DNA from: a virus
Taxonomy: Duplodnaviria; Heunggongvirae; Uroviricota; Caudoviricetes
Virus record (IMG/VR): IMGVR_UViG_2744054914_000003
Length of the DNA stretch: 42,128 nt
Reading direction: 5' to 3' (one strand)
The notes below the pieces were generated by a model, which was not told the origin of the DNA, made no database searches, and was given only the letters and a program-made list of their open reading frames with translations. Shown here piece by piece: positions 271-13,536 of the stretch. The position numbers and the translations under genes were made by a program. The stretch's first letter is position 1. The number at the start of each line of letters is the position of its first letter.

Positions 271-475
271 TTACCGTTAAATCATTTTAAAATCAGTAAG
301 TTGTATCGAGTTTGTATGCTTTACTGTCATTAACTTACTGTATGTTGATCCAGTGTATTTAACCTTGATAAACTCAGTCCAGCAACACAAAACCGCAACA
401 CATTGCATTTTGTCCCGTAGAAAAGACTTGTATGTGTGAGCTTGTTTTCTGCGCCTACGCAGATAAGGATTGAGA

Positions 476-1873
476 ATGCCGCGCACTGTAACACATAATC
501 CGGATAGCCCCAATAATGACGATGTTTTAGCCGCATCTGAAAAATGGGACGCCTGTAAACCCCCCTATACCAGCGCACACATGAAAATCTGTGTTGCTGC
601 CGCCAAAATCATCCTCGCTGCTTCCGGCGTGGCTCGCCGTTCCAAATACGAAAAAGAGAACTATCTCCGTATCGATTTCAGCAAAGCCGGTAAGGTTACA
701 TTTTACGCCGAGTTTCCAAAAAAGATGGGCCTCAAGGGTAAAAAGCTCGGCGAGTGGCCGGAGCTCGCTATCCAGCTGGCGCGCGAAAAAGCGCTAGGTA
801 TGGCTGACGGTGGCTTGCGGGCAGAGTCCGTACATACAGCGCTGGAAATGTACCGGGATGACCTCAAAGCCAAAGTCGCCCGGCAGAAGCTGAGCCCGGA
901 CAGTTTCACAACCTACGGGGTGCGTATCGACCGGATTAAAGCAACGTTCGGCGAGCGTGAGGTGTTCAGCGACGTAACATACAATCGGCTGGTGGAAGTG
1001 CTGGACGAGTGGATCGCCACTCGCTCGAACAATAACGCCCTGGAGTTGTTTGCCGAGCTCCGTCGGTTCTGGAAGTTCTGCGCACCTACTCTTTGTAACG
1101 GTCGCAATGTTGCTGCCAGTCTGCCAGATGATTATGTTTCCTCCCGCGTACAGAAACCCACCCCCACACGGCTTTTTACCGATATTGAGTCAATCGCCCG
1201 GCTCTGGCTCAATGTTGCCGCCTGCACCTCTGTACACCAGAAGAATGCTGTTCGCTTCATGATCATCACCGGCGTTCGTCCGATTAATGTCCATAACCTG
1301 CGCTGGGACTACGTTCACGAGGAGACTGGCGAAATTGTTTATCCTGAAGGGGTTATCGGCATGCGAGGGGCTATGAAAACACAAAAGGCTTTCCGCCTGC
1401 CAATAACGCCGGAGATCCGGCGGATTATCGACGAGCAGAAAGCATGGCGTGATTCAGTTCCTGAGTGCAACAGGGATTATGTATTTTTGCAGCCGCGTGA
1501 TCCAATGCAGCCATTTTCAAAACGATCACTGGATAAGCTAGTGAAAACATACAGCCCGGATGGGGCTGTAAAAGGAATAAAACATGATGGGACTGTTAAA
1601 GGGAAAGACGGTGCATTTAATACGATGTGCCGTAAATTCCTTAAGAGCAATGTTATTGCCTTGATGAAGGAAAGAGGCTATTCCCGATCAGACCGAAGGG
1701 AAATCAGCCTCCTTTGCCTTCACCACTCCAGCAAGTCAGATGACCCGATGGCAGAACATTACGACTTTTCTGATGAGATTTTGCAGGAAGAGATTGCGTT
1801 AAAGCGCGAAGCTTTCGAGGCTCACGAGCGGAGCATACTTGCGCAGGTGGCATTGCTACGGCGGCGAGGTTAA
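476..1873 (+). CDS. Phage integrase (tyrosine recombinase), atypically long
   Basis: Longest ORF starts at TTG 470; ATG at 476 follows AAGGA. Box-I-like region (GVRPINVHNLRWDYV ... KTQKAFRLPITPEI) and C-terminal His/Tyr-containing region; sits at the prophage edge next to a host gene. Confidence 0.7.
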   Translation: MPRTVTHNPDSPNNDDVLAASEKWDACKPPYTSAHMKICVAAAKIILAASGVARRSKYEKENYLRIDFSKAGKVTFYAEFPKKMGLKGKKLGEWPELAIQLAREKALGMADGGLRAESVHTALEMYRDDLKAKVARQKLSPDSFTTYGVRIDRIKATFGEREVFSDVTYNRLVEVLDEWIATRSNNNALELFAELRRFWKFCAPTLCNGRNVAASLPDDYVSSRVQKPTPTRLFTDIESIARLWLNVAACTSVHQKNAVRFMIITGVRPINVHNLRWDYVHEETGEIVYPEGVIGMRGAMKTQKAFRLPITPEIRRIIDEQKAWRDSVPECNRDYVFLQPRDPMQPFSKRSLDKLVKTYSPDGAVKGIKHDGTVKGKDGAFNTMCRKFLKSNVIALMKERGYSRSDRREISLLCLHHSSKSDDPMAEHYDFSDEILQEEIALKREAFEAHERSILAQVALLRRRG

Positions 1874-2070
1874 TACCGGCTGCGACACTTTTGAATAAAA
1901 GCGTCGACATTGCGGCGCTCATAACGAACTACTTTTGCACTGAAACGAATTGGTGCCAGGATAGCCCGATGACGATGCTTAATATTCCACTCACATAGCG
2001 TTTTCTGTGTAATACCTAACTTTTGGCATACTTCATCCGGGGTGAGTAAATCGTCGGGTTTCTCGCTCAT
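1870..2070 (-). CDS. AlpA/excisionase-like small DNA-binding protein
   Basis: 66-aa ORF with helix-turn-helix-like segment (LLTPDEVCQKLGITQKTLCEW), typical of AlpA/Xis-family proteins beside integrases. Confidence 0.6.
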   Translation of the reverse strand: MSEKPDDLLTPDEVCQKLGITQKTLCEWNIKHRHRAILAPIRFSAKVVRYERRNVDAFIQKCRSRY

Positions 2071-3464
2071 GCTATACCTCTCTTTTTCATGGCATCGAGC
2101 AGGATGTCCTGCACTGTTCGTTTTGAGTTGCGCCGCTCCATCACCATTTCGTCCATAGTGTCGGCAGCAATAATGTGGTGAATAAATACCGGACGATTGT
2201 GTCCGGCCTGTATCTGCCTGGTGGGGCCGATACGTTCAATAATTTGCTGATATTGCTCCAGGTCCCACCAGTGTGAGAAAAATACCAGTATATTTCCGCC
2301 GTCCTGCATGTTCAGGCCGTGGCCCGCGCTGGCTGGGTGTGCAAAGAGAACAGGAATCTTTCCGGAATTCCAGTCGCGCAGTGTCTGTGGATCCTGGTCG
2401 AGGTGACGACCGCGAGGGAATGCTTTAAGCAAGCGTTCAAGATCGTGTTTCCAGTGATAAGCAACCAGCACAGGTGCGCCAGCTGCTTCGGTCAGTATGC
2501 TGTCCAGCGCCTGTAGTTTGGTGTCATGCAGTTCTGACCAACTTCCGGTGTCGTCTGTGTATACTGCGCCACTGGCGATTTGAAGACACTTCAGTGTCTT
2601 TGCCGCGGCGTTCGGTGCTTCGATGCCTTCGCCATTCAGCTCGAGGAACATTTCCTTTTCCATTTCACGATACTGCTGACGGGCCTTCGGCGGCATATCC
2701 ACGCGGATTACGTTATGGATGGGGTCTTTGATATCGAACCAGTCGGCCGCATCTAGCGAGAGGGTCACATCGGCTAATGCTCGCTGTATTTCACCCTGTG
2801 AGTGAGCAAAAGGCTCCAGTTTAGTCCAGCTCTGTCCCGGAAACTGTATCGAGTTGAACCAGCGTGAGGTAAACGCACCGTAAGTGCGCCCGAGACGTTG
2901 CCCTTGGTCCACAAACCACGATTGTCCCCACAAATCTACCAGGCCGTTCGGTGCTGGCGTACCGGTGAGATTTATCCAGCGCCGGACATACTTATGCGCC
3001 ACTTTGCCCAGTGCCGCCGCGCGCTTACCACCACCTCGCAGCCGGAAGGATTTTAGCCGGGTGCTTTCATCTGGAATGACAATACCGAACGGCCATCGTT
3101 CTCCCAATTCTTCAACCAGCCAGACAAGGTTATCGTAGTTGATGGTGAACACGCTTGCGTTGCTGTTCGCCAGCGCCGTAGAGCGCGCTTTGGCATTACC
3201 AACAATCGGCTGCACCTCGATATTGCGCAAATGCCCCCACTTCACTGCTTCATCCGGCCAGGTGTTTGCTGCAACACGTAGCGGCGCGAGGACCAGTGCG
3301 GGGCGTGTTTCTGCCCCTGCCATAAAAAGATCTTCCAGCGCAGTGAGCGTTGCCACGGTTTTACCCATTCCCATACCTGCCCAGATGTTGCAGCGCATAA
3401 TGTCGATTTGATGATTGATGATGAGATCTTGGTAGGGGTGAGGTGAAAATATAGCATAGTCCAT
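2067..3464 (-). CDS. SNF2-family (DEAD/DEAH-box) helicase
   Basis: Walker A GMGMGKT and DExx box (VIPDESTRLKS); ATG at 3464 preceded by GGAGAT; belongs to the recalled phage module DUF2800/DUF2815/PolA/VRR-NUC/SNF2. Confidence 0.8.
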   Translation of the reverse strand: MDYAIFSPHPYQDLIINHQIDIMRCNIWAGMGMGKTVATLTALEDLFMAGAETRPALVLAPLRVAANTWPDEAVKWGHLRNIEVQPIVGNAKARSTALANSNASVFTINYDNLVWLVEELGERWPFGIVIPDESTRLKSFRLRGGGKRAAALGKVAHKYVRRWINLTGTPAPNGLVDLWGQSWFVDQGQRLGRTYGAFTSRWFNSIQFPGQSWTKLEPFAHSQGEIQRALADVTLSLDAADWFDIKDPIHNVIRVDMPPKARQQYREMEKEMFLELNGEGIEAPNAAAKTLKCLQIASGAVYTDDTGSWSELHDTKLQALDSILTEAAGAPVLVAYHWKHDLERLLKAFPRGRHLDQDPQTLRDWNSGKIPVLFAHPASAGHGLNMQDGGNILVFFSHWWDLEQYQQIIERIGPTRQIQAGHNRPVFIHHIIAADTMDEMVMERRNSKRTVQDILLDAMKKRGIA

Positions 3465-3531
3465 GGTATTGTATCTCCATGAATGAACTTATGTAGTAAT
3501 AGCTTAATTATTTATTTCGAAAGGAACAGTT

Positions 3532-4410
3532 ATGACCTCAGCTTATACAGATGTCCAGCAAGAAGAAAATATTACTGATAAATTAGTTGTTAAATATGAT
3601 GGTCCCGCACTAGCAGATCATAAAATAGATTTGGATGTTTTAACTGAGTCATTGAATGGACTAAACAACTTGCTTAAAGAAGTTAATTTGGTTGTCAATG
3701 GCACTAGTGAGTGTATTAATGTTGAGGTTGAGCCTTTTAAGGAAGGCTCATTTGAGTATTTGATTGATGTTATTCAAAATCCACTTGACCATTTGAATAT
3801 ATTAAGCATTATTGGGCTTGGAGGTACAACTGCACTCGCAGCAGGAAATACTCTCATTGACTTAATTCGTCAGATCAATGGTAGGCAAATAAAACGGTTG
3901 ACTTTAACAGCGGAAGGAGACTGTAAAATAGTTATGGATGATGGTGAGGAAATTATAGCCCCGTCATATTTCCGGCCTTTACTTGCCTCACCAAGCATAC
4001 GCAAATCCTTATCGAAGTTAATTCATAATCCTTTGCAAAAGGAAGGATACGAATCGCTTAAAATTTCAACTCAACAGGGGGTTGAGCTGATTAAGGTGCA
4101 CGAAGATAATATTGAACCGTTCAGATATAGGCGCGTTCCTGTAGTGCAGTCCTTGTCTGAAAGGGTGATTGAAGAGGCTCTAATCACATTTTTGACTATT
4201 CATAAGGATAAAAACACAGGCTGGCGAGTCAACTATGGCGATGACACAATCAGCGTGTCTATAGAAGATACTGAGTTCTTACAACGTGTTAGTACGGGAA
4301 GAGAACCTGGTGTTTTTAGTGATGCTTACTGCGTTGATTTGCTCGTCCGTGAGAACTTGAATTCGCTGGACAAAACGTACATAGTTGTTAAAGTACACGG
4401 TATCTTATAG
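3532..4410 (+). CDS. Hypothetical soluble protein, gene 1 of AT-rich three-gene moron
   Basis: 292-aa ORF, ATG preceded by AAGGAACA; about 30-35% GC against >50% in flanking phage genes; no hydrophobic helix or catalytic motif recognised by eye. Confidence 0.6.
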   Translation: MTSAYTDVQQEENITDKLVVKYDGPALADHKIDLDVLTESLNGLNNLLKEVNLVVNGTSECINVEVEPFKEGSFEYLIDVIQNPLDHLNILSIIGLGGTTALAAGNTLIDLIRQINGRQIKRLTLTAEGDCKIVMDDGEEIIAPSYFRPLLASPSIRKSLSKLIHNPLQKEGYESLKISTQQGVELIKVHEDNIEPFRYRRVPVVQSLSERVIEEALITFLTIHKDKNTGWRVNYGDDTISVSIEDTEFLQRVSTGREPGVFSDAYCVDLLVRENLNSLDKTYIVVKVHGIL

Positions 4411-4433
4411 TAGATTCACATGGGGAGGGGGCT

Positions 4434-4682
4434 ATGATTGCTTTTGCTTTTTGGCTGGCTTTTTTTAGCCTGCTTCCCGTACTATATTGGGTTCTTAAGA
4501 TGGGGTTTGACCGGTTACGCTTTGCGCTTATGCCTAAACATCATCTTGTTCTTGAATGTGTTGACTCAGAAGGAGTTGTCCGTCGCGATGTCGTTGATGT
4601 CTCTTCTGATGATGAATTTTACAAAATTGCAATGAATGCCATTCGTGCTGGAAGATCAGTCAAAGGAGGGACGTTTGAGTAG
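4434..4682 (+). CDS. Small membrane protein, gene 2 of AT-rich moron
   Basis: 82-aa ORF, ATG preceded by GGGGAGGGGG; N-terminal hydrophobic helix (IAFAFWLAFFSLLPVLYWVL) then charged soluble tail; stop TAG at 4680-4682 overlaps next gene's start. Confidence 0.5.
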   Translation: MIAFAFWLAFFSLLPVLYWVLKMGFDRLRFALMPKHHLVLECVDSEGVVRRDVVDVSSDDEFYKIAMNAIRAGRSVKGGTFE

Positions 4683-5205
4683 CGCTTCTAAACCTGATAG
4701 CTACGAAAAAGTCCCTCTGATTTCTAATGTTGCTGCTGGTGGCATCACTGGTTTTTTAACATTACTGGTGTCCTCGTGGGACGGTCGTTTTCCGTATATT
4801 GGTTCTGATTTAAATACAATAAAGCCATTTCTTTTATTAATGCTTCCCAGTTGCGCTATGTTTCTGGCGCATTGGATAAAGTCGATTGGGTTTAAATGGT
4901 CCTTAGGTAGCGTTAATCGACAGTTATTAAGCATTAATAAGAAGAAAGAAAAAGAACTTCGCCGTGATATTGAAAAGTACAAAAATGTTATTTCTAATGA
5001 AAAGATAGAGGACTTTAAAAGTCAACTTGAACAAGTATTACAAGATCGTCATGATATTATTTCTAATAATTACGCACAGAAACTAAGAGAAAGAAATTAT
5101 ACGCAAGAAAAATATCATGAGCATAAACAAACCGCTGCAAATGATAATATTGAGCTGCAAAGCATACTGGAGAATCAGAAGTTCAATCAAAAAGGCATTG
5201 ACTAA
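4675..5205 (+). CDS. Membrane protein with two hydrophobic helices and K/E-rich coiled-coil C-terminus, gene 3 of AT-rich moron
   Basis: In-frame TTG at 4675 lies 5 nt after strong AAGGAGGG and overlaps gene 2 stop by 8 nt; alternative ATG at 4636 lacks a ribosome-binding site. Hydrophobic segments (VAAGGITGFLTLLVSSW; FLLLMLPSCAMFLAHWI). Confidence 0.5.
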   Translation: MSSASKPDSYEKVPLISNVAAGGITGFLTLLVSSWDGRFPYIGSDLNTIKPFLLLMLPSCAMFLAHWIKSIGFKWSLGSVNRQLLSINKKKEKELRRDIEKYKNVISNEKIEDFKSQLEQVLQDRHDIISNNYAQKLRERNYTQEKYHEHKQTAANDNIELQSILENQKFNQKGID

Positions 5206-5209
5206 ATTT

Positions 5210-5479
5210 TTATAATATCCTCTCTAGGTTCTTGCTATCCAGCACCACTACGGTAAAGCCCAGTTTTCGCAGACGTTCATGTTCGCGCAATTGGTCAGGC
5301 CGTGGTGGCTTGCCGGGAGATTTACATTCAACGAAAACGATACGACCACCTGGTAGCAGGACAATGCGATCCGGTACCGAGCGGTGACCGGGAGATACAA
5401 ACTTAAAGGCCACTCCGCCAGCTTTTTTCACTTCAGCGACGAGGTGCTTTTCGATAAGGCTTTCACGTTCATAGGCCAT
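5210..5479 (-). CDS. VRR-NUC domain nuclease
   Basis: PD-(D/E)xK-like motif (DRIVLL ... VFVECKSPG); longest ORF extends to 5506 but start at MAYERESL is more plausible. Confidence 0.7.
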   Translation of the reverse strand: MAYERESLIEKHLVAEVKKAGGVAFKFVSPGHRSVPDRIVLLPGGRIVFVECKSPGKPPRPDQLREHERLRKLGFTVVVLDSKNLERIL

Positions 5480-5768
5480 CTGAATCCCACTCTTCAAAAA
5501 GCACATTCAATTCCAGTTTCTCTGCCAACGCGTTTTCTGCACGTGCGCCAGCAGAGTACTCCCACTCTTTGAGCATATAAATCGTATCGGCACAGCGAAG
5601 CATTGCGAGGCAGATGTCCATATACTGAGCCTGTGTCAAACCATTGGGTAAAGTTGCGGGGTTAAGCACAACATATCCCTTGTCCGTTAGCCTCTTTGCT
5701 GCGGAATGAAAAGCCGGGCGGTTAAATTGCTCGTAACCGCTCATCGGCCCGGCAACGTAAACGATCAT
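5469..5768 (-). CDS. DUF4406-like (nucleoside 2-deoxyribosyltransferase-like) phage protein
   Basis: 99-aa ORF with N-terminal VYVAGPMSG motif recalled for this family; ATG at 5768. Confidence 0.55.
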   Translation of the reverse strand: MIVYVAGPMSGYEQFNRPAFHSAAKRLTDKGYVVLNPATLPNGLTQAQYMDICLAMLRCADTIYMLKEWEYSAGARAENALAEKLELNVLFEEWDSDGL

Positions 5769-5980
5769 TCTTCGACCGCCTTACGCTTTTCACGCATATT
5801 CTGCATCAGGCAAAAATCAGATCTGCGTTCACTCCATTCCTGATTCAGTTCGTGATGTGATTCGCGGTTGGCTTTTGCCCAGACCTTCGCTGCCCGGTCA
5901 TATTCGCCGGATTGTTCAAGTCGCAAAGCCTCCCTTGCAGCCCTGTAATAAAGTGGATTGTCCCGGTATTTAAATGACAT
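5765..5980 (-). CDS. Small hypothetical phage protein
   Basis: 71-aa ORF tightly packed between the polymerase and DUF4406-like genes, with overlapping stop/start. Confidence 0.4.
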   Translation of the reverse strand: MSFKYRDNPLYYRAAREALRLEQSGEYDRAAKVWAKANRESHHELNQEWSERRSDFCLMQNMREKRKAVEE

Positions 5981-5985
5981 AGGAG

Positions 5986-8049
5986 TTAATCCTTACGGTA
6001 GTGGTACGCCTCAAAACCGCCAGCGTTCAGTGGGATATCTGGCGCCCATTCGGGGTTAGTGGAGAGAAGCGCGGAAAGCGCTTTATCGTTGAAATCTTCT
6101 GTGTCAGGTGATTCGGTGATCACCTCGTCGTGTACCGTCAGCACAATGCTGTAACCGGCATCTTCGATAAGCGGCATGTTTCCGGCCAGAACGTCGCGGG
6201 CGGCCGCCTGGGTGACGTTCTCCACCAGCTTTCCGCCGTAGGTTTTGAGTCGTTGCCATTTACGCGAATAAGAGTTAACACCCATGTAGGTGATATTCCC
6301 TTGTTCGATAACCGGAGACGGGTAGCATACAGCGCGTCCGGATGGTAGCTGTATGCGCAGCCACGCGCCATCGCGGCGGATTTTAAGATAACCGCAATAC
6401 AATGTTTTTTGCGGTGTGGCGATTGCTGTGCGGACGGTGCACTCCAGTTCGTACCAGAAATCACAGGTCGCGGGATGCGCCCGGCGCCAGAGACGTTTAA
6501 GTGAGTCGCAGGCGATAAATACCCGTTCAGAAAGCCCGTAGGTCGATTTACGTTTAACCGATTCGTCGTACCAGCTTTTCGCCTCGCGGATAACATCGCG
6601 GGGAATGTTTGGCAGTGCGGCGTTCGCCAGCCCGTCGAGATCGAGACCGTAAACCAGAGCAAAAGTGATGAAAGCCGATACACCTCCTCCATAACCCAGA
6701 CCGAGTTCCATGACTTTACCGATCTGACGCATGTGTTTATCAACATCATCTGGTGCAATATCGAAAGCTTTTGCATACGCCAGTTTATATAAGTCCGGAC
6801 CCGTTCCGGCGTCGTACTCTCTGAATGCATTCAGTTTCCATTCTTCTCCCGCCAGCCATGCCAGCATACGGCCTTCAATGTTCGACAAGTCACTTACCAC
6901 CAGCTTTTTGCCTGTTGGCGCGATAATGCAGCCACGTAACGCTGAACTGGTTAGTTCCATGATATTGTCAAACAGCAGGTCTGCACATCCGGCTTTCAGT
7001 GCTTCGATGCCTTCGTCTATTTGTTCCTGTTTTAGTGAAGGGCGGGGAAGGTTCTGGGGCTGGAATAGCCGTCCGGCCCAACGACCGGTACGTGACGCCC
7101 CGCAGAACTGTAGCGTACCGCGTAAGCGCCCGTCGTGGCTTACGCCTTTCATCAGTGCCTTGTATTTACTGGTGCTGGTAGTACTGGCCTGCAGGCGGAT
7201 AGCCAGCAGTTCTTTCACGGCAGATGGTAAATCGGGGTCGGCAATACGACGTTCCAGAGTACTGCGTTGCATGTCTGGTAGCTCCACACCGTAGGATTCA
7301 ACAATGTGCTTAATCAACGCGTCTCGTTGTGTGGCTGCCTGCACTTCGCCATCAGTCATTTCCTGTGTACGCTTTGCCAGGCGCTTTTGTTCCTGGTCTA
7401 CCGCGTCGATCGCAGCGCGTGCGAGTTCCACGTCCATGCAGACGCCCCGGTCATTGATCTGCTGATCACGATGCCAGAGCGCCAGTTCTGTCCCCTGATA
7501 ATTCCACTTCGGCAGACGTTTATAGACTTCGCGCATTGCCTCGATATCCAGTCCGGCGTAAGCAACAAAGCGCCGCCATTCTTCCGGGTGGGTTTTGCTG
7601 GTGGCCCGGCGCAGTTTGCTGTTTTTCGGGCGTGGCTTACAGAACAGCTGGATCAGCGCTTTACCTTCTTTGTCCTTCGCTTTGTCTTGCGGGACGCCTA
7701 GTACTTCGCAGAGTTCCCCCAGAGACCCCGGGAGACCGTGCGCCAGCGCCTGCACCATCGTGTCGCGCCAACGTTCGACTGGCGGTGCCAGTCGCGGCAT
7801 TGCATAACGCAGGACGGTGCGGTCGAAGTGAGAGTTATGAAAATAAAGCAGGGTTTCAGGGGCTGCGATTGCTTCGTATAAGCCGTGTGGAATACCACCA
7901 CCGGCAGTGATATCCCATACGTTTACTGGCCCGTCGTTGATAGCCCATGCGAACAGCATCACTTCAACGCCTTCGGCATACGCATGGGTACCGTTCGTAA
8001 TAGGGATTTCGCAATAGGTTTCCAGGTCGCCCCATAGTATATTGGACAT
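5986..8049 (-). CDS. Family-A DNA polymerase (3'-5' exonuclease plus polymerase domains)
   Basis: 687-aa ORF; exonuclease motif DLETY near N-terminus, polymerase motif A-like ([13 protein letters not shown]) and motif C (VHDEV). Confidence 0.85.
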
Positions 8050-8095: not shown

Positions 8096-8725
8096 ATGCA
8101 TATGATCCAATACTTGATTGACCATACAGAGCATCTGGAGAAAATAGCTGGATATATTTTTTCATGTTTGATTGTTATGGGAGTCTGGATAAGAAAGATC
8201 ATTTTTAATTATAAGTATAAAGAGCCTAAATATGTCAAGAAGTTAATTTTATATTTAGTTAAGTATGAACGTTATCTGGATAAGGAGGATAAGAGTGCCA
8301 TAGAAAAAAGAATAAATGATAAAATTATTCGTGATGCGCTGAAATTGCAATCTTCTTATAACCGAAGTGATGTTATTTACATTTGCAATAGATTAGAAAA
8401 AAGACAGTATATAAATCAGGTGATTAAGCTTCAGAATTATATAGAGAAAGATAACGGAGTGTTTTTCATCAATGTTAATTTTTCAGGTTTTTTATTTATT
8501 ATTAGTCGTCTGTTTTCCTTTCTGTGTTTTGTGCTGTTTATCCTTTTTTCTATTATCTGCATTATTTCCATAGGGCAAAATGAAGGCCTTTTAAATTATC
8601 TTGTGTATATGGTTATGACAATAGTTTTAGAGACTGTTGGTTTTTGGATGTATGATACTTTCCCGTCTAAGAAGAAGATCTGTGAACTAAATAAAGAATT
8701 GAGGAAGATTAAGATTCCTGAGTGA
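8096..8725 (+). CDS. Hypothetical membrane protein (AT-rich moron, opposite strand to the replication operon)
   Basis: 209-aa ORF in strongly AT-rich DNA between two minus-strand replication genes; hydrophobic segments at N-terminus and C-terminal third (FLFIISRLFSFLCFVLFILFSIICIISIG; LVYMVMTIVLETVGFWMY). Confidence 0.5.
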   Translation: MHMIQYLIDHTEHLEKIAGYIFSCLIVMGVWIRKIIFNYKYKEPKYVKKLILYLVKYERYLDKEDKSAIEKRINDKIIRDALKLQSSYNRSDVIYICNRLEKRQYINQVIKLQNYIEKDNGVFFINVNFSGFLFIISRLFSFLCFVLFILFSIICIISIGQNEGLLNYLVYMVMTIVLETVGFWMYDTFPSKKKICELNKELRKIKIPE

Positions 8726-11918: not shown

Positions 11919-12443
11919 ATGTCTGAAGAAAAAGGACTTGTACGGCGTATAACTGAGGCGGCCACTAGTGCTGGTGGTGCTTTGAAAGGTGCTGTTGATT
12001 TAGCAAAAGAAGTTAATGCGTTGCAGGTGGATTACAATGTTAAAAGTAAAACTATCGATCTACTTGATAAACTAATTGATGCGCGTACTGGACAATTCGC
12101 ACTAACGGAGCTTTTGAACGAAGCTAAACAGCGCATTGTTGAACTCGAATCCCTTCTGGAAAAGAAACAGGATTGGGATAGTGAGAAAATGAACTATGAA
12201 ATGTACCACCCGATTACCAATACGGTGGTCTATGTACTGAAGCCTACTGACGATCCTGAGTTCAAGCCTCATTATCTTTGTACTACATGCTATGAGTCGG
12301 GTATGAAGTCTATACTTCAATACCATACTTCTAATGCCGCTTATAAAATTCTCAAGTGTCATAAATGCTCCGCTGAATATAAATTTCCCCGAAATATAGA
12401 AGTCAGTGGCAAAACTCCTGCACCGTTACAACCTGCCAGATGA
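11919..12443 (+). CDS. Hypothetical coiled-coil protein with C-terminal CxxC...CxxC zinc ribbon (immunity-region moron)
   Basis: 174-aa ORF, ATG at 11919; motif CTTCYESG...CHKCSAEY; about 40% GC; opposite strand to flanking early genes and cI. Confidence 0.55.
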   Translation: MSEEKGLVRRITEAATSAGGALKGAVDLAKEVNALQVDYNVKSKTIDLLDKLIDARTGQFALTELLNEAKQRIVELESLLEKKQDWDSEKMNYEMYHPITNTVVYVLKPTDDPEFKPHYLCTTCYESGMKSILQYHTSNAAYKILKCHKCSAEYKFPRNIEVSGKTPAPLQPAR

Positions 12444-12537
12444 TTAGCAGTTCTCTTTGGTGGTGGTGTAGTGGTAGATGCTGAACTTCGGATTGACTCA
12501 ATGGACTGATCTTCACCCCACCCCAAAAGGAACTAAG

Positions 12538-12558
12538 CGCCCCATCGTCGGGGCGTTT
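12538..12558 (+). terminator. Weak putative terminator downstream of the 11919-12443 gene
   Basis: CGCCCC-ATCGTC-GGGGCG hairpin followed by a short TTT run. Confidence 0.35.
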
Positions 12559-12809
12559 CAACTTGCGTGACTTATCAGTTTGTCGCGGTGTTGTCCTCTA
12601 CGCTTACCGTACGCATACGGACTCGGCGCTTACCTCGATCCCATCGGGTGCTATTTCGTTTTGCCAGGAGTACTGCGGCTTACCTGTCACGCGGTTCAGT
12701 TTGTTAAAGAGCCAGTATTAAAAAACGCATTAATTATGCGATATCGTATTTATATGCGTTATGGGATTTTGTGTCAATACGAAAATGAATTATTTTGCAA
12801 ATAAGAAAA

Positions 12810-12836
12810 CCGCCCTTGTGGAGAGCGGTTTGATCA
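12810..12836 (-). terminator. Putative rho-independent terminator of the repressor gene
   Basis: On the minus strand: AACCGC...GCGGTT stem followed by a U-rich run, directly after the cI stop at 12862. Confidence 0.45.
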
Positions 12837-12861
12837 GAAGTAAGTTATCAGACTGTAAAGG

Positions 12862-13536
12862 TTAGTACATACGTAGCGCGGATTTGGCGATCCCCGCCAC
12901 GTAATGGATTTTTTCAATGTTTTCGCGTGGTACTCTGACTGGTGGATGATCTTCATTTACAGACATTAGATGGAACAGGCCATCGCGTTCGAACAAGAAG
13001 GTTTTAACCATGACCTCACCTTCCCGGGTAACCACAAGTACTTCATCACCAGGAGTGTAGTCGTGGTTGGGTTCGACGATTACGAACTCCCCCTCTTTGA
13101 TTCTAGGCATCATTGAATCACCAACACATTTCAGGGCGTATGCATCTTCATCCTTTGTCGGCCAGTATATGAAACCATCACTGCTACCTACTGAATATTG
13201 GGTGTCGCTCCAAAGTCCTCCAACGCCTAGCTGAGTGTTTCCCAAAACAGGTACTTTATTAAACCTAAGAGAAATATACGTTTTTATACCTGTCGCGTCC
13301 TCTTTCTCCAGTTCTTGAAGGCTCCTTTCTGCCAAGTCTATTGGTGACACGTGGAAGTAGTCGGCGATCTGCTTTAACGTTGCGTATTTCGGATCTTTCA
13401 CCTCTCCTGATACCAGCCTGTGTAGCGTTGGTTGGTTCAGCTGTAACCGACGTGCCAGCTCAGTTATCGAGCTTATCTTGGCTTTGTCCATCAGGTACTT
13501 GATGTTTTGAGAAAGGATATCGGTAGTATCAATCAT
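12862..13536 (-). CDS. cI: CI-like phage repressor (HTH N-terminus, S24 LexA-like peptidase C-terminus)
   Basis: 224-aa ORF; HTH region (SITELARRLQLNQPTLHRLVSG); S24-type domain with Ser (GDSM) and Lys (VMVKTF) regions; divergent from a cro-like gene. Confidence 0.85.
   Translation of the reverse strand: MIDTTDILSQNIKYLMDKAKISSITELARRLQLNQPTLHRLVSGEVKDPKYATLKQIADYFHVSPIDLAERSLQELEKEDATGIKTYISLRFNKVPVLGNTQLGVGGLWSDTQYSVGSSDGFIYWPTKDEDAYALKCVGDSMMPRIKEGEFVIVEPNHDYTPGDEVLVVTREGEVMVKTFLFERDGLFHLMSVNEDHPPVRVPRENIEKIHYVAGIAKSALRMY

Follow-up and report, generated by a model that had tools for sequence, protein, structure and literature searches.

What does a block of three genes encode when it lies inside the replication genes of an Escherichia coli prophage, antisense to them and lower in guanine and cytosine (GC)? 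The block in question, here called the cassette, occupies positions 3465–5205 of IMG/VR virus record IMGVR_UViG_2744054914_000003, a stretch of 42,128 nucleotides that is referred to below as the window. A first-pass annotation had proposed that its three genes, which we call A, B, and C, form an undescribed exclusion system composed of a soluble sensor and a membrane effector. To judge from sequence, the cassette is probably a prophage defense of the gp29/gp30 type found in mycobacteriophage MichelleMyBell (MMB), equipped with a new set of two membrane proteins, and not a new kind of system. The MMB gp29/gp30 pair, listed in DefenseFinder as MMB_gp29_gp30, is said to have been shown experimentally to be a prophage defense by Dedrick et al. 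in 2017 (Nat Microbiol 2:16251). Our preferred reading, which we hold with moderate confidence, makes the cassette a prophage moron, acquired horizontally, that encodes an enterobacterial anti-phage system of this type. The three genes are as follows:

3532–4410, + strand: gene A, an open reading frame (ORF) of 292 residues
4434–4682, + strand: gene B, an ORF of 82 residues
4675–5205, + strand: gene C, 176 residues from a TTG start; an alternative ATG at 4636 (4636–5205) would give 189 residues

Family identity of gene A

Over residues 17–288 of its 292, the product of gene A matches the PADLOC entry PDC-S42 (hidden Markov models PDLC05015–05017) with an E-value of 6.1e-40 and 135.6 bits, and model PDLC05015 is matched by all 73 sampled relatives of A. 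The protein also scores 193.7 bits on NCBIfam NF053583 (LAPAL_fam), for which the cutoff is 60; its "LAPAL" helix reads LTESL, retaining the family-conserved L37 and L41. MMB (KF986246) gp29, a protein of 310 residues, itself reaches 181.4 bits on NF053583 and 1.6e-16 on PDC-S42. When a family profile of A, comprising 73 sequences, was compared with MMB gp29 using hhalign, the two aligned end to end over 267 columns (98.9%, E 2.8e-17). Sequence identity between A and MMB gp29 is about 21%, and GSF, WR, and D..F motifs are conserved between the A family and MMB gp29. The ortholog of A in a Vibrio phage, moreover, bears the annotation "MMB_gp29_gp30__gp29". The hhalign result and the common matches to NF053583 and PDC-S42 identify A as a full-length homolog of MMB gp29 and a member of its family.

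This family is large. When 1.84 billion representative proteins were searched with a profile, 4,529 clusters (50% identity clustering) were found at E ≤ 1e-3, and the best 150 of these are nearly all proteins of about 270–350 residues with near-full-length matches. The relationship to Pfam DUF7946 (PF25678) is weak and confined to the N-terminal part: A scores 22.3 bits over residues 19–81, below the gathering threshold of 27, and 20 of the 73 relatives match at E ≤ 0.01. Four labels are thereby joined in one family, namely MMB gp29, PDC-S42, NCBIfam "LAPAL" and, weakly, DUF7946. PDC-S42 was the only PADLOC model that matched A at E ≤ 1, and B and C matched no PADLOC model; in PHROGs, all three proteins match only families of unknown function, and PDB sequence searches with A, B, and C profiles gave nothing credible. 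MMB was not reached when a high-GC family member was compared with phages by tblastn. We found no literature on PDC-S42, DUF7946, the LAPAL motif, the WP accessions, or the PHROG identifier, and PDC-S42 is not mentioned in the supplements of the PADLOC-embedding preprint (10.1101/2024.01.29.577857).

With A already present in PADLOC PDC-S42 and NCBIfam NF053583 and homologous to MMB gp29, this gene can no longer be called undescribed. The broader proposal of the first-pass annotation, an exclusion system built from soluble and membrane proteins, fares better: the cassette is most likely an anti-phage module, given an insertion hotspot that is shared with BstA and that holds the three genes in 17 of 159 cases (see below). 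PDC entries were chosen for being embedded in BREX, DISARM, type I restriction–modification, or Hma loci (10.1101/2024.01.29.577857), and one distant relative of A, which directly follows an MmeI-type restriction enzyme, fits such an origin. PDC-S42 is defined as a single-gene candidate, whereas A is strictly linked here to two membrane-protein genes for which PADLOC has no models.

The cassette as portable cargo

A, B, and C are genuine genes under purifying selection and not chance ORFs, as follows from their low ratios of nonsynonymous to synonymous substitution (dN/dS) relative to orthologs: 0.075 for A, 0.12–0.18 for B, and 0.067 for C. Each is preceded by a Shine–Dalgarno site (A, AAGGA at 3521–3525; B, GGAGG at 4424–4428; C, AGGAGG at 4664–4669), the last of which ends 5 nucleotides before the TTG codon. 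Since orthologs of C are 161–171 residues long and start at positions equivalent to this TTG, the 176-residue reading of C is the correct one. B and C overlap by 8 nucleotides (4675–4682). The first-pass annotation was accurate in all of these respects, having described three co-oriented ORFs on the + strand with ribosome-binding sites, the 8-nucleotide overlap, a third protein of about 176 residues, and flanking SNF2 and VRR-NUC genes on the opposite strand. The immediate surroundings are:

2067–3464, − strand: SNF2-family helicase gene (Pfam SNF2-rel_dom, 5e-12), the left boundary of the hotspot
3465–3531: spacer between the divergent starts of SNF2 (−) and gene A (+), 28% GC
5210–5506, − strand: VRR-NUC / PD-(D/E)XK nuclease gene (Pfam VRR_NUC, 1e-3; RefSeq annotation), the right boundary of the hotspot

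The SNF2 and VRR-NUC genes are prophage backbone and not parts of the cassette, which lies between them antisense to the − strand replication genes. No terminator was found 3' of C, whose stop codon is 4 nucleotides from the convergent stop of VRR-NUC. The GC content of 3465–5205 is 37.9% (A, 38.7%; B, 42.6%; C, 34.8%; 300-nucleotide windows, 31–44%), compared with 53.6% for SNF2 and 49.5% for VRR-NUC. The contrast with the flanks is thus as had been noted, but the cassette is less extreme than the 30–35% given earlier, and of the two flanks said to exceed 50% GC only SNF2 does so.

Wherever A is at least 43% identical, which is the case at about 30 loci, the three genes occur together in the same order and with the same spacing. 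These loci come from E. coli, Salmonella-type bacteria, Klebsiella, Serratia, Pantoea, Aeromonas, Photobacterium, and one Vibrio phage, and B and C were seen only alongside A. Close clusters of A number 37 and are found in Enterobacterales, Aeromonas, and Photobacterium; the 21 clusters of C are all from Enterobacterales. The proteins at the C position in Aeromonas and in the Vibrio phage are beyond the reach of BLAST; hhalign pairs them with the C profile at 97.2% and 95.2%, respectively. The trio has a GC content of 37–41% in every host, against 45–54% for its flanks. It is one portable unit. A contig scan with a closer alignment picked out only two species-representative genomes, and a nucleotide search of a phage collection with the cassette gave no match.

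The unit is found in diverse places. It immediately follows, and is co-oriented with, the gene for an HTH+S24 CI-type repressor in Serratia (locus L013 of our collection), and a CI-type repressor likewise precedes it directly, on the same strand, in IMG/VR contigs L038 and L039. It adjoins an integrase in Klebsiella aerogenes and metH in Photobacterium, lies at the prophage end in a second E. coli prophage, and in Aeromonas is found beside type I HsdR, Mrr_N, Fic, and a Mob_Pre relaxase. In Pantoea ananatis LMG 2665 (L002 5539–7625), the trio is located between Mu-like baseplate genes and on the same strand as these, an insertion within a late structural operon that may explain the NCBIfam name of the family. 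A 120-residue ORF with a signal-peptide-like N-terminus precedes the Pantoea trio. Finally, the whole trio is present beside the integrase of Vibrio phage 10N.286.45.F8_PE001 (PQ189332; L122 5989–7593), a temperate, non-tailed member of the Vinavirales with a genome of 14.4 kb and PM2-like capsid genes. The module is thus carried by tailed and non-tailed viruses alike.

Comparison of related prophages, which the first-pass annotation had suggested as a check, shows the insertion site itself to be variable. Among 5,426 complete E. coli genomes, the cassette is present at at least 99% identity in 17 and the flanking backbone in 159; at the junction between SNF2 and VRR-NUC, the trio is found in 17 of these 159 and absent from the other 142. 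In strain STEC383 the junction is empty and the two genes overlap by 4 nucleotides. In EPSSH018 it is occupied by BstA (PADLOC BstA, 1.4e-115) on the same antisense strand, in IAI1 and B-JRPT-4119 by an unannotated gene of 265 residues, and in other records by Rha/Ant/Arc genes or methyltransferases according to their RefSeq annotation. The junction is a cargo hotspot, and its empty, BstA-bearing, and trio-bearing states bear out the description of the cassette as a variable, horizontally acquired prophage moron. The conservation across all related phages that would have refuted the first-pass annotation is therefore not seen. BstA, an abortive-infection protein of Salmonella and E. coli prophages found in sister prophages at the same junction and on the same strand, is a functional alternative to the trio at this hotspot but not a relative: it is a single protein of the HTH/KilA-N type, and the BstA model matches none of A, B, and C. 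The 265-residue hypothetical protein (L010 1565–2362 in IAI1; L012 1562–2359 in B-JRPT-4119) is encoded on the same strand as the trio, has no PADLOC match, and is another uncharacterized candidate defense gene.

We also inspected the neighbors of distant relatives of A in IMG/VR. Upstream neighbors of at least 100 residues matched HTH_3 in 19 of 50 cases, Peptidase_S24 (CI/LexA type) in 14 of 50, and Phage_tail_S in 6 of 50, in a set of upstream genes that was not dereplicated and in which 3 of the 50 loci were already known to have a repressor neighbor. In 75 of 80 loci the gp29-like gene is poorer in GC than the flanking sequence, the median difference being −6.3 points; MMB and the loci that follow tail gene S are among them. 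Members of the family are lysogen-side morons that in many cases belong to the repressor transcript.

These contexts bear on the product name that NF053583 confers, "LAPAL motif-containing putative phage structural protein". Taken literally, it would make A a structural protein of the phage, and some relatives do lie in virion-gene clusters, with Phage_tail_S upstream or, as in Pantoea, between baseplate genes. Such a role is nonetheless extremely improbable. A is antisense within the replication operon and missing from most related prophages (142 of 159), and members of its family are found beside the integrase of the non-tailed Vinavirales phage and in defense islands outside prophages. The drop in GC (75 of 80 loci) extends to the copies that follow tail gene S, the defense protein MMB gp29 scores 181 bits on the very model that carries the name, and no structural-protein fold was found for A in Foldseek searches of PDB and BFVD. 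Because NF053583 fits gp29, and because relatives occur beside CI repressors and restriction genes and in a non-tailed phage, the RefSeq name (window 3532–4410; L001 12068–12946) is probably misleading.

Predicted proteins and possible modes of action

An AlphaFold2 model of A, computed from a 73-sequence alignment, reached a predicted local distance difference test score (pLDDT) of 89 and a predicted template modeling score (pTM) of 0.76. The order of its secondary-structure elements suggests three domains: an N-terminal domain with a beta-alpha-beta-beta-alpha-beta arrangement that contains the "LAPAL" helix (residues 14–125), a small alpha/beta middle domain (131–190), and a C-terminal OB-type beta-barrel with the order E-E-E-H-E-E and a helix between strands 3 and 4 (208–291). 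At the level of the fold, what defines an OB domain, a five-stranded barrel with a helix between strands 3 and 4, is present in the modeled A. Residues G24, G72, W231, D246, and F249 are invariant in the family, and L37, L41, S73, F74, R157, P167, L168, G172, and V288 nearly so. No catalytic motif or constellation is found among these conserved residues, in agreement with the earlier observation that Walker A, nuclease, and HEPN signatures are lacking. As modeled, A has the appearance of a binding protein or adaptor, with nucleic acid as a plausible ligand. Foldseek comparison of the model with PDB gave nothing at E ≤ 1e-3; in BFVD it matched only uncharacterized viral proteins.

Hydropathy analysis supports the topology that had been predicted for the three products, with no transmembrane (TM) segment in A, one in B (residues 1–25), and two in C (about 13–33 and 46–71) ahead of a charged tail. 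The N-terminal TM helix of B is strongly conserved (A.WL.FF..LPV.YW) and is followed by a conserved C-terminal domain of about 55 residues; in a 12-sequence alignment W7, L8, F10, F11, P15, Y18, W19, H36, E41, G47, F62, and Y63 are invariant. C combines the TM hairpin with a strongly basic stretch next to the membrane (IKSIGFKWSLGS.NR.L..NK.K) and a helical tail that is long and rich in lysine, glutamate, and glutamine. Its AlphaFold2 model, of moderate confidence (pLDDT 68), places helices at residues 16–36, 50–103, 108–152, and 159–172. By the positive-inside rule, the C-terminal domain of B and the tail of C are predicted to be cytoplasmic and hence on the same side of the membrane as A. 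B matches phrog_15510 and C matches phrog_15878, the latter in an alignment that begins at residue 14 of the 189-residue ORF; neither protein has a match in Pfam, PADLOC, NCBIfam, or PDB.

The resulting architecture resembles that of MMB, where gp30, a 67-residue protein with two hydrophobic helices, overlaps gp29 by 41 nucleotides. Both systems are morons with a GC content below that of their flanks, and in both a soluble gene product of about 300 residues is followed at once by a gene for a small membrane protein. In MMB, however, this is a single 67-residue protein with two TM helices, whereas the cassette encodes two, one of 82 residues with one TM helix and one of 176 residues with two TM helices and a helical tail. 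The hosts differ as well, those of the cassette being Proteobacteria and those of the MMB system Actinobacteria.

A membrane partner is not a trait of the family as a whole. Among 78 distinct distant IMG/VR loci, 12 have, on the + strand, an ORF that begins near the stop codon of the gp29-like gene and contains a hydrophobic segment, fewer than the 30 of 78 obtained in the antisense control, and a downstream membrane protein was therefore rejected as a family-wide feature. The gene downstream of distant gp29-like genes is not conserved. At one such locus, in a polysaccharide-biosynthesis region, a gene for a 231-residue protein (L004 6951–7646) begins 23 nucleotides downstream of a distant gp29-like gene (28% identity); this protein has a long proline-rich segment and a winged-helix-like C-terminal end, and may be a different kind of partner. 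Membrane partners are lineage-specific additions: gp30 in cluster N mycobacteriophages, and B and C in gamma-proteobacteria. Because most members of the gp29 family have no membrane neighbor, A is the core unit of the family. These counts also speak against the assignment of A as sensor and the membrane proteins as effector in the first-pass annotation, a polarity that is probably to be reversed.

For the cassette we propose the following working, in which the defense phenotype, the complex, its polarity, and the trigger are all inferred. A would be the conserved cytoplasmic core, and B and C a translationally coupled pair of inner-membrane proteins in place of the unrelated gp30. In a lysogen, the three would form a complex at the inner membrane, where A would dock on B's cytoplasmic domain and C's helical tail. 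Both recognition and arrest of the infecting phage would fall to A, whose OB-type domain would most likely bind nucleic acid or a phage protein in doing so. B and C would restrain A, position it, or couple it to membrane events until a superinfecting phage acts as the trigger, and the outcome would be abortive infection or exclusion of heterotypic phages. We favor this polarity, with A as the core and B and C as its tether or regulator, because the family mostly stands alone and gp29 is reported to be toxic. MMB genes 29 and 30 have been described as viral defense genes (PMC5559632), the pair consisting of a toxic gp29 together with gp30, a putative membrane protein (PMC11856565) and acting by abortive infection, with adsorption and injection proceeding (PMC6426606).

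A different division of labor, that of RexAB, had been suggested by the first-pass annotation. A would then be a cytoplasmic sensor of a phage cue, and B and C would form a pore or channel that depolarizes the membrane and aborts infection. As in RexAB, CarolAnn gp44/gp43, and Sbash gp30/gp31, a soluble protein (about 280–370 residues) is combined with one or more membrane proteins and encoded by a prophage. In Serratia and in L038/L039, the position of the trio behind a co-oriented CI-type repressor gene is that of rexA and rexB behind cI. The TM hairpin of C and the single TM helix of B are both strictly co-inherited with A, and A itself has no catalytic motif and contains an OB-type domain, a typical ligand-binding module. 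RexB, however, has four TM helices, whereas B and C are predicted to have one and two; no pore-lining polar face is obvious in them, although no dedicated analysis was made. A comes from a large, mostly stand-alone family, and the absence of the membrane partner from most of its members rules out a mere sensor role for A family-wide. In terms of sequence, homology to RexAB was rejected: hhalign gave 0.2% for the family profile of A against lambda RexA and 0.3% for C against RexB, and A has no match to Pfam DUF4747. The resemblance to lambda RexAB that had been pointed out is therefore one of architecture and not of sequence. CarolAnn gp43/44 and Sbash gp30/31 do operate by sensing and depolarization (PMC6426606), whereas in the MMB pair it is gp29 that a secondary source calls the toxic component (PMC11856565). 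We consider a Rex-like mechanism plausible, though unlikely, for the cassette.

B and C could instead be the active components in a non-abortive superinfection exclusion, blocking DNA entry or another envelope step, with A in an accessory or regulatory role. T4 Imm, P22 SieA, and HK97 gp15 are examples of exclusion at such a step, and HK97 gp15 is also a precedent for a moron within a tail-gene cluster, as in the Mu-like baseplate cluster of Pantoea. Small inner-membrane proteins encoded by a prophage moron would suit this role. The conserved and far more widespread component is A, however, and B and C occur only with it; moreover, the MMB system reportedly acts once adsorption and injection have taken place (PMC6426606). 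A block of injection is thus a decidedly improbable explanation, and the two that remain, an addiction or switch function and the structural role considered above, are progressively less likely. In the former, the cassette would stabilize the prophage as an addiction or toxin–antitoxin-like module of a toxic A and membrane antitoxins, or serve as an accessory of the lysis–lysogeny switch. A switch-accessory role has been proposed for RexA, and the placement next to CI-type repressors, together with an OB-type domain that could bind an operator or single-stranded DNA, would suit such a role as well. The toxicity reported for gp29 (PMC11856565) would agree with an addiction module. Against both stand the occurrence of the trio outside prophages beside a type I restriction subunit and its sites in a replication operon, a tail cluster, and prophage ends, which fit portable cargo and not a component of the switch. 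In addition, PADLOC picked the family because its members are embedded in defense systems, and BstA is found in the same hotspot. We therefore regard an addiction or switch function as very unlikely.

The preferred reading, a gp29/gp30-type defense, has its own weak points. Conserved function across the roughly 21% identity between A and gp29 is an extrapolation, and the defense role of proteobacterial members would be carried over from MMB by analogy. The likeness at the level of the whole system would likewise be one of architecture, since hhalign comparison with gp30 gave 2.0% for the B profile and 0.5% for the C profile. The description of gp29 as toxic, from a secondary source, could be due to confusion with Phrann gp29. 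PDC-S42 is one of 145 untested "guilt-by-embedding" candidates (Payne et al., bioRxiv 10.1101/2024.01.29.577857). Lastly, expression of the cassette in the lysogen and a promoter in 3465–3531 are assumed. A sigma-70 consensus scan of this spacer, which also contains the ribosome-binding site of SNF2 (GGAGA, − strand), gave no match of 9/12 or better, and candidates picked by hand are weak. Between insertion sites, no conserved upstream sequence moves with the cassette, and a promoter travelling with it was rejected, the upstream regions at the other sites being unrelated. The divergent promoter that the cassette had been credited with is thus unconfirmed.

A more specific version of the gp29/gp30-type reading is possible, and we put it forward tentatively. 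In it, B and C would be an unrecognized membrane module that turns a widespread, stand-alone OB-fold defense protein into a membrane-gated, three-component system: they would tether and silence A at the inner membrane and release or activate it upon envelope perturbation or DNA injection by a superinfecting phage, whereupon A would bind phage replication intermediates via its OB domain. For the favored polarity in general, Kiwa, which consists of a membrane protein, KwaA, and a soluble DNA-binding effector, KwaB, offers a possible parallel for a membrane part that restrains or triggers a soluble DNA-acting effector; we draw it as an analogy only, and the sizes and numbers of TM helices differ. 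If membrane gating were true, the cassette would provide an E. coli-tractable route to the mechanism of gp29/gp30, and the same core would have acquired unrelated membrane partners independently in different lineages, gp30 in one and B and C in the other.

The novelty of the cassette lies in its two-protein membrane module, in a phylum where a complete gp29–gp30 system is unreported. One gamma-proteobacterial branch of the family is invariably accompanied by two small membrane proteins, and in its E. coli hotspot it alternates with BstA. Complete gp29–gp30 systems as detected by DefenseFinder have been reported only in Actinobacteria (Georjon et al., where it is not specified whether MichelleMyBell or Phrann is meant), and MMB gp29/gp30 is among the few defense systems validated in that group. 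In practical terms, the cassette yields a tractable E. coli model for the gp29 family, a probable correction of a RefSeq product name, and the testable hypothesis that unrelated membrane partners plug into one soluble core.

Neighboring genes and other cargo of the prophage

The window begins with yfhL and a tyrosine integrase gene; it therefore represents the left end of a prophage inserted next to yfhL in E. coli. Besides the genes listed above, this end contains:

1–261, − strand: yfhL, which opens the window
470–1873: tyrosine integrase, at the left prophage end
1870–2070, − strand: HTH gene, among the early/replication genes
5469–5768, − strand: DUF4406 gene, among the early/replication genes
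5765–5980, − strand: ANR-type regulator, among the early/replication genes
5986–8049, − strand: PolA, among the early/replication genes

In sister prophages, a second hotspot is located between VRR-NUC/ANR and PolA, equivalent to about 5765–5990 of the window. Its cargo (L010 3091–3852 in IAI1; L012 2720–3748 in B-JRPT-4119) is a TIR protein, which corresponds to PADLOC PDC-S35 (7e-109), or else an ATP-binding protein, for which there is a weak DrmA-like match. The same interval of the window holds only the DUF4406 and ANR genes. Further along, the otherwise matching prophage of strain JNEC-KY208 carries an IS2 insertion (L001 21015–22243) between a 174-residue ORF and an HTH gene; it is absent from the corresponding region of the window (12443–12862).

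The window contains another antisense moron at 8096–8725 (+ strand), between PolA and a DUF2815 gene, with a GC content of 29.5%. It encodes a protein of 209 residues with several C-terminal hydrophobic segments, the sole match of which is phrog_10579, a family of unknown function. This moron is present in 67 of the 5,426 E. coli genomes, compared with 17 for the trio, and because of this difference in distribution it is independent cargo.

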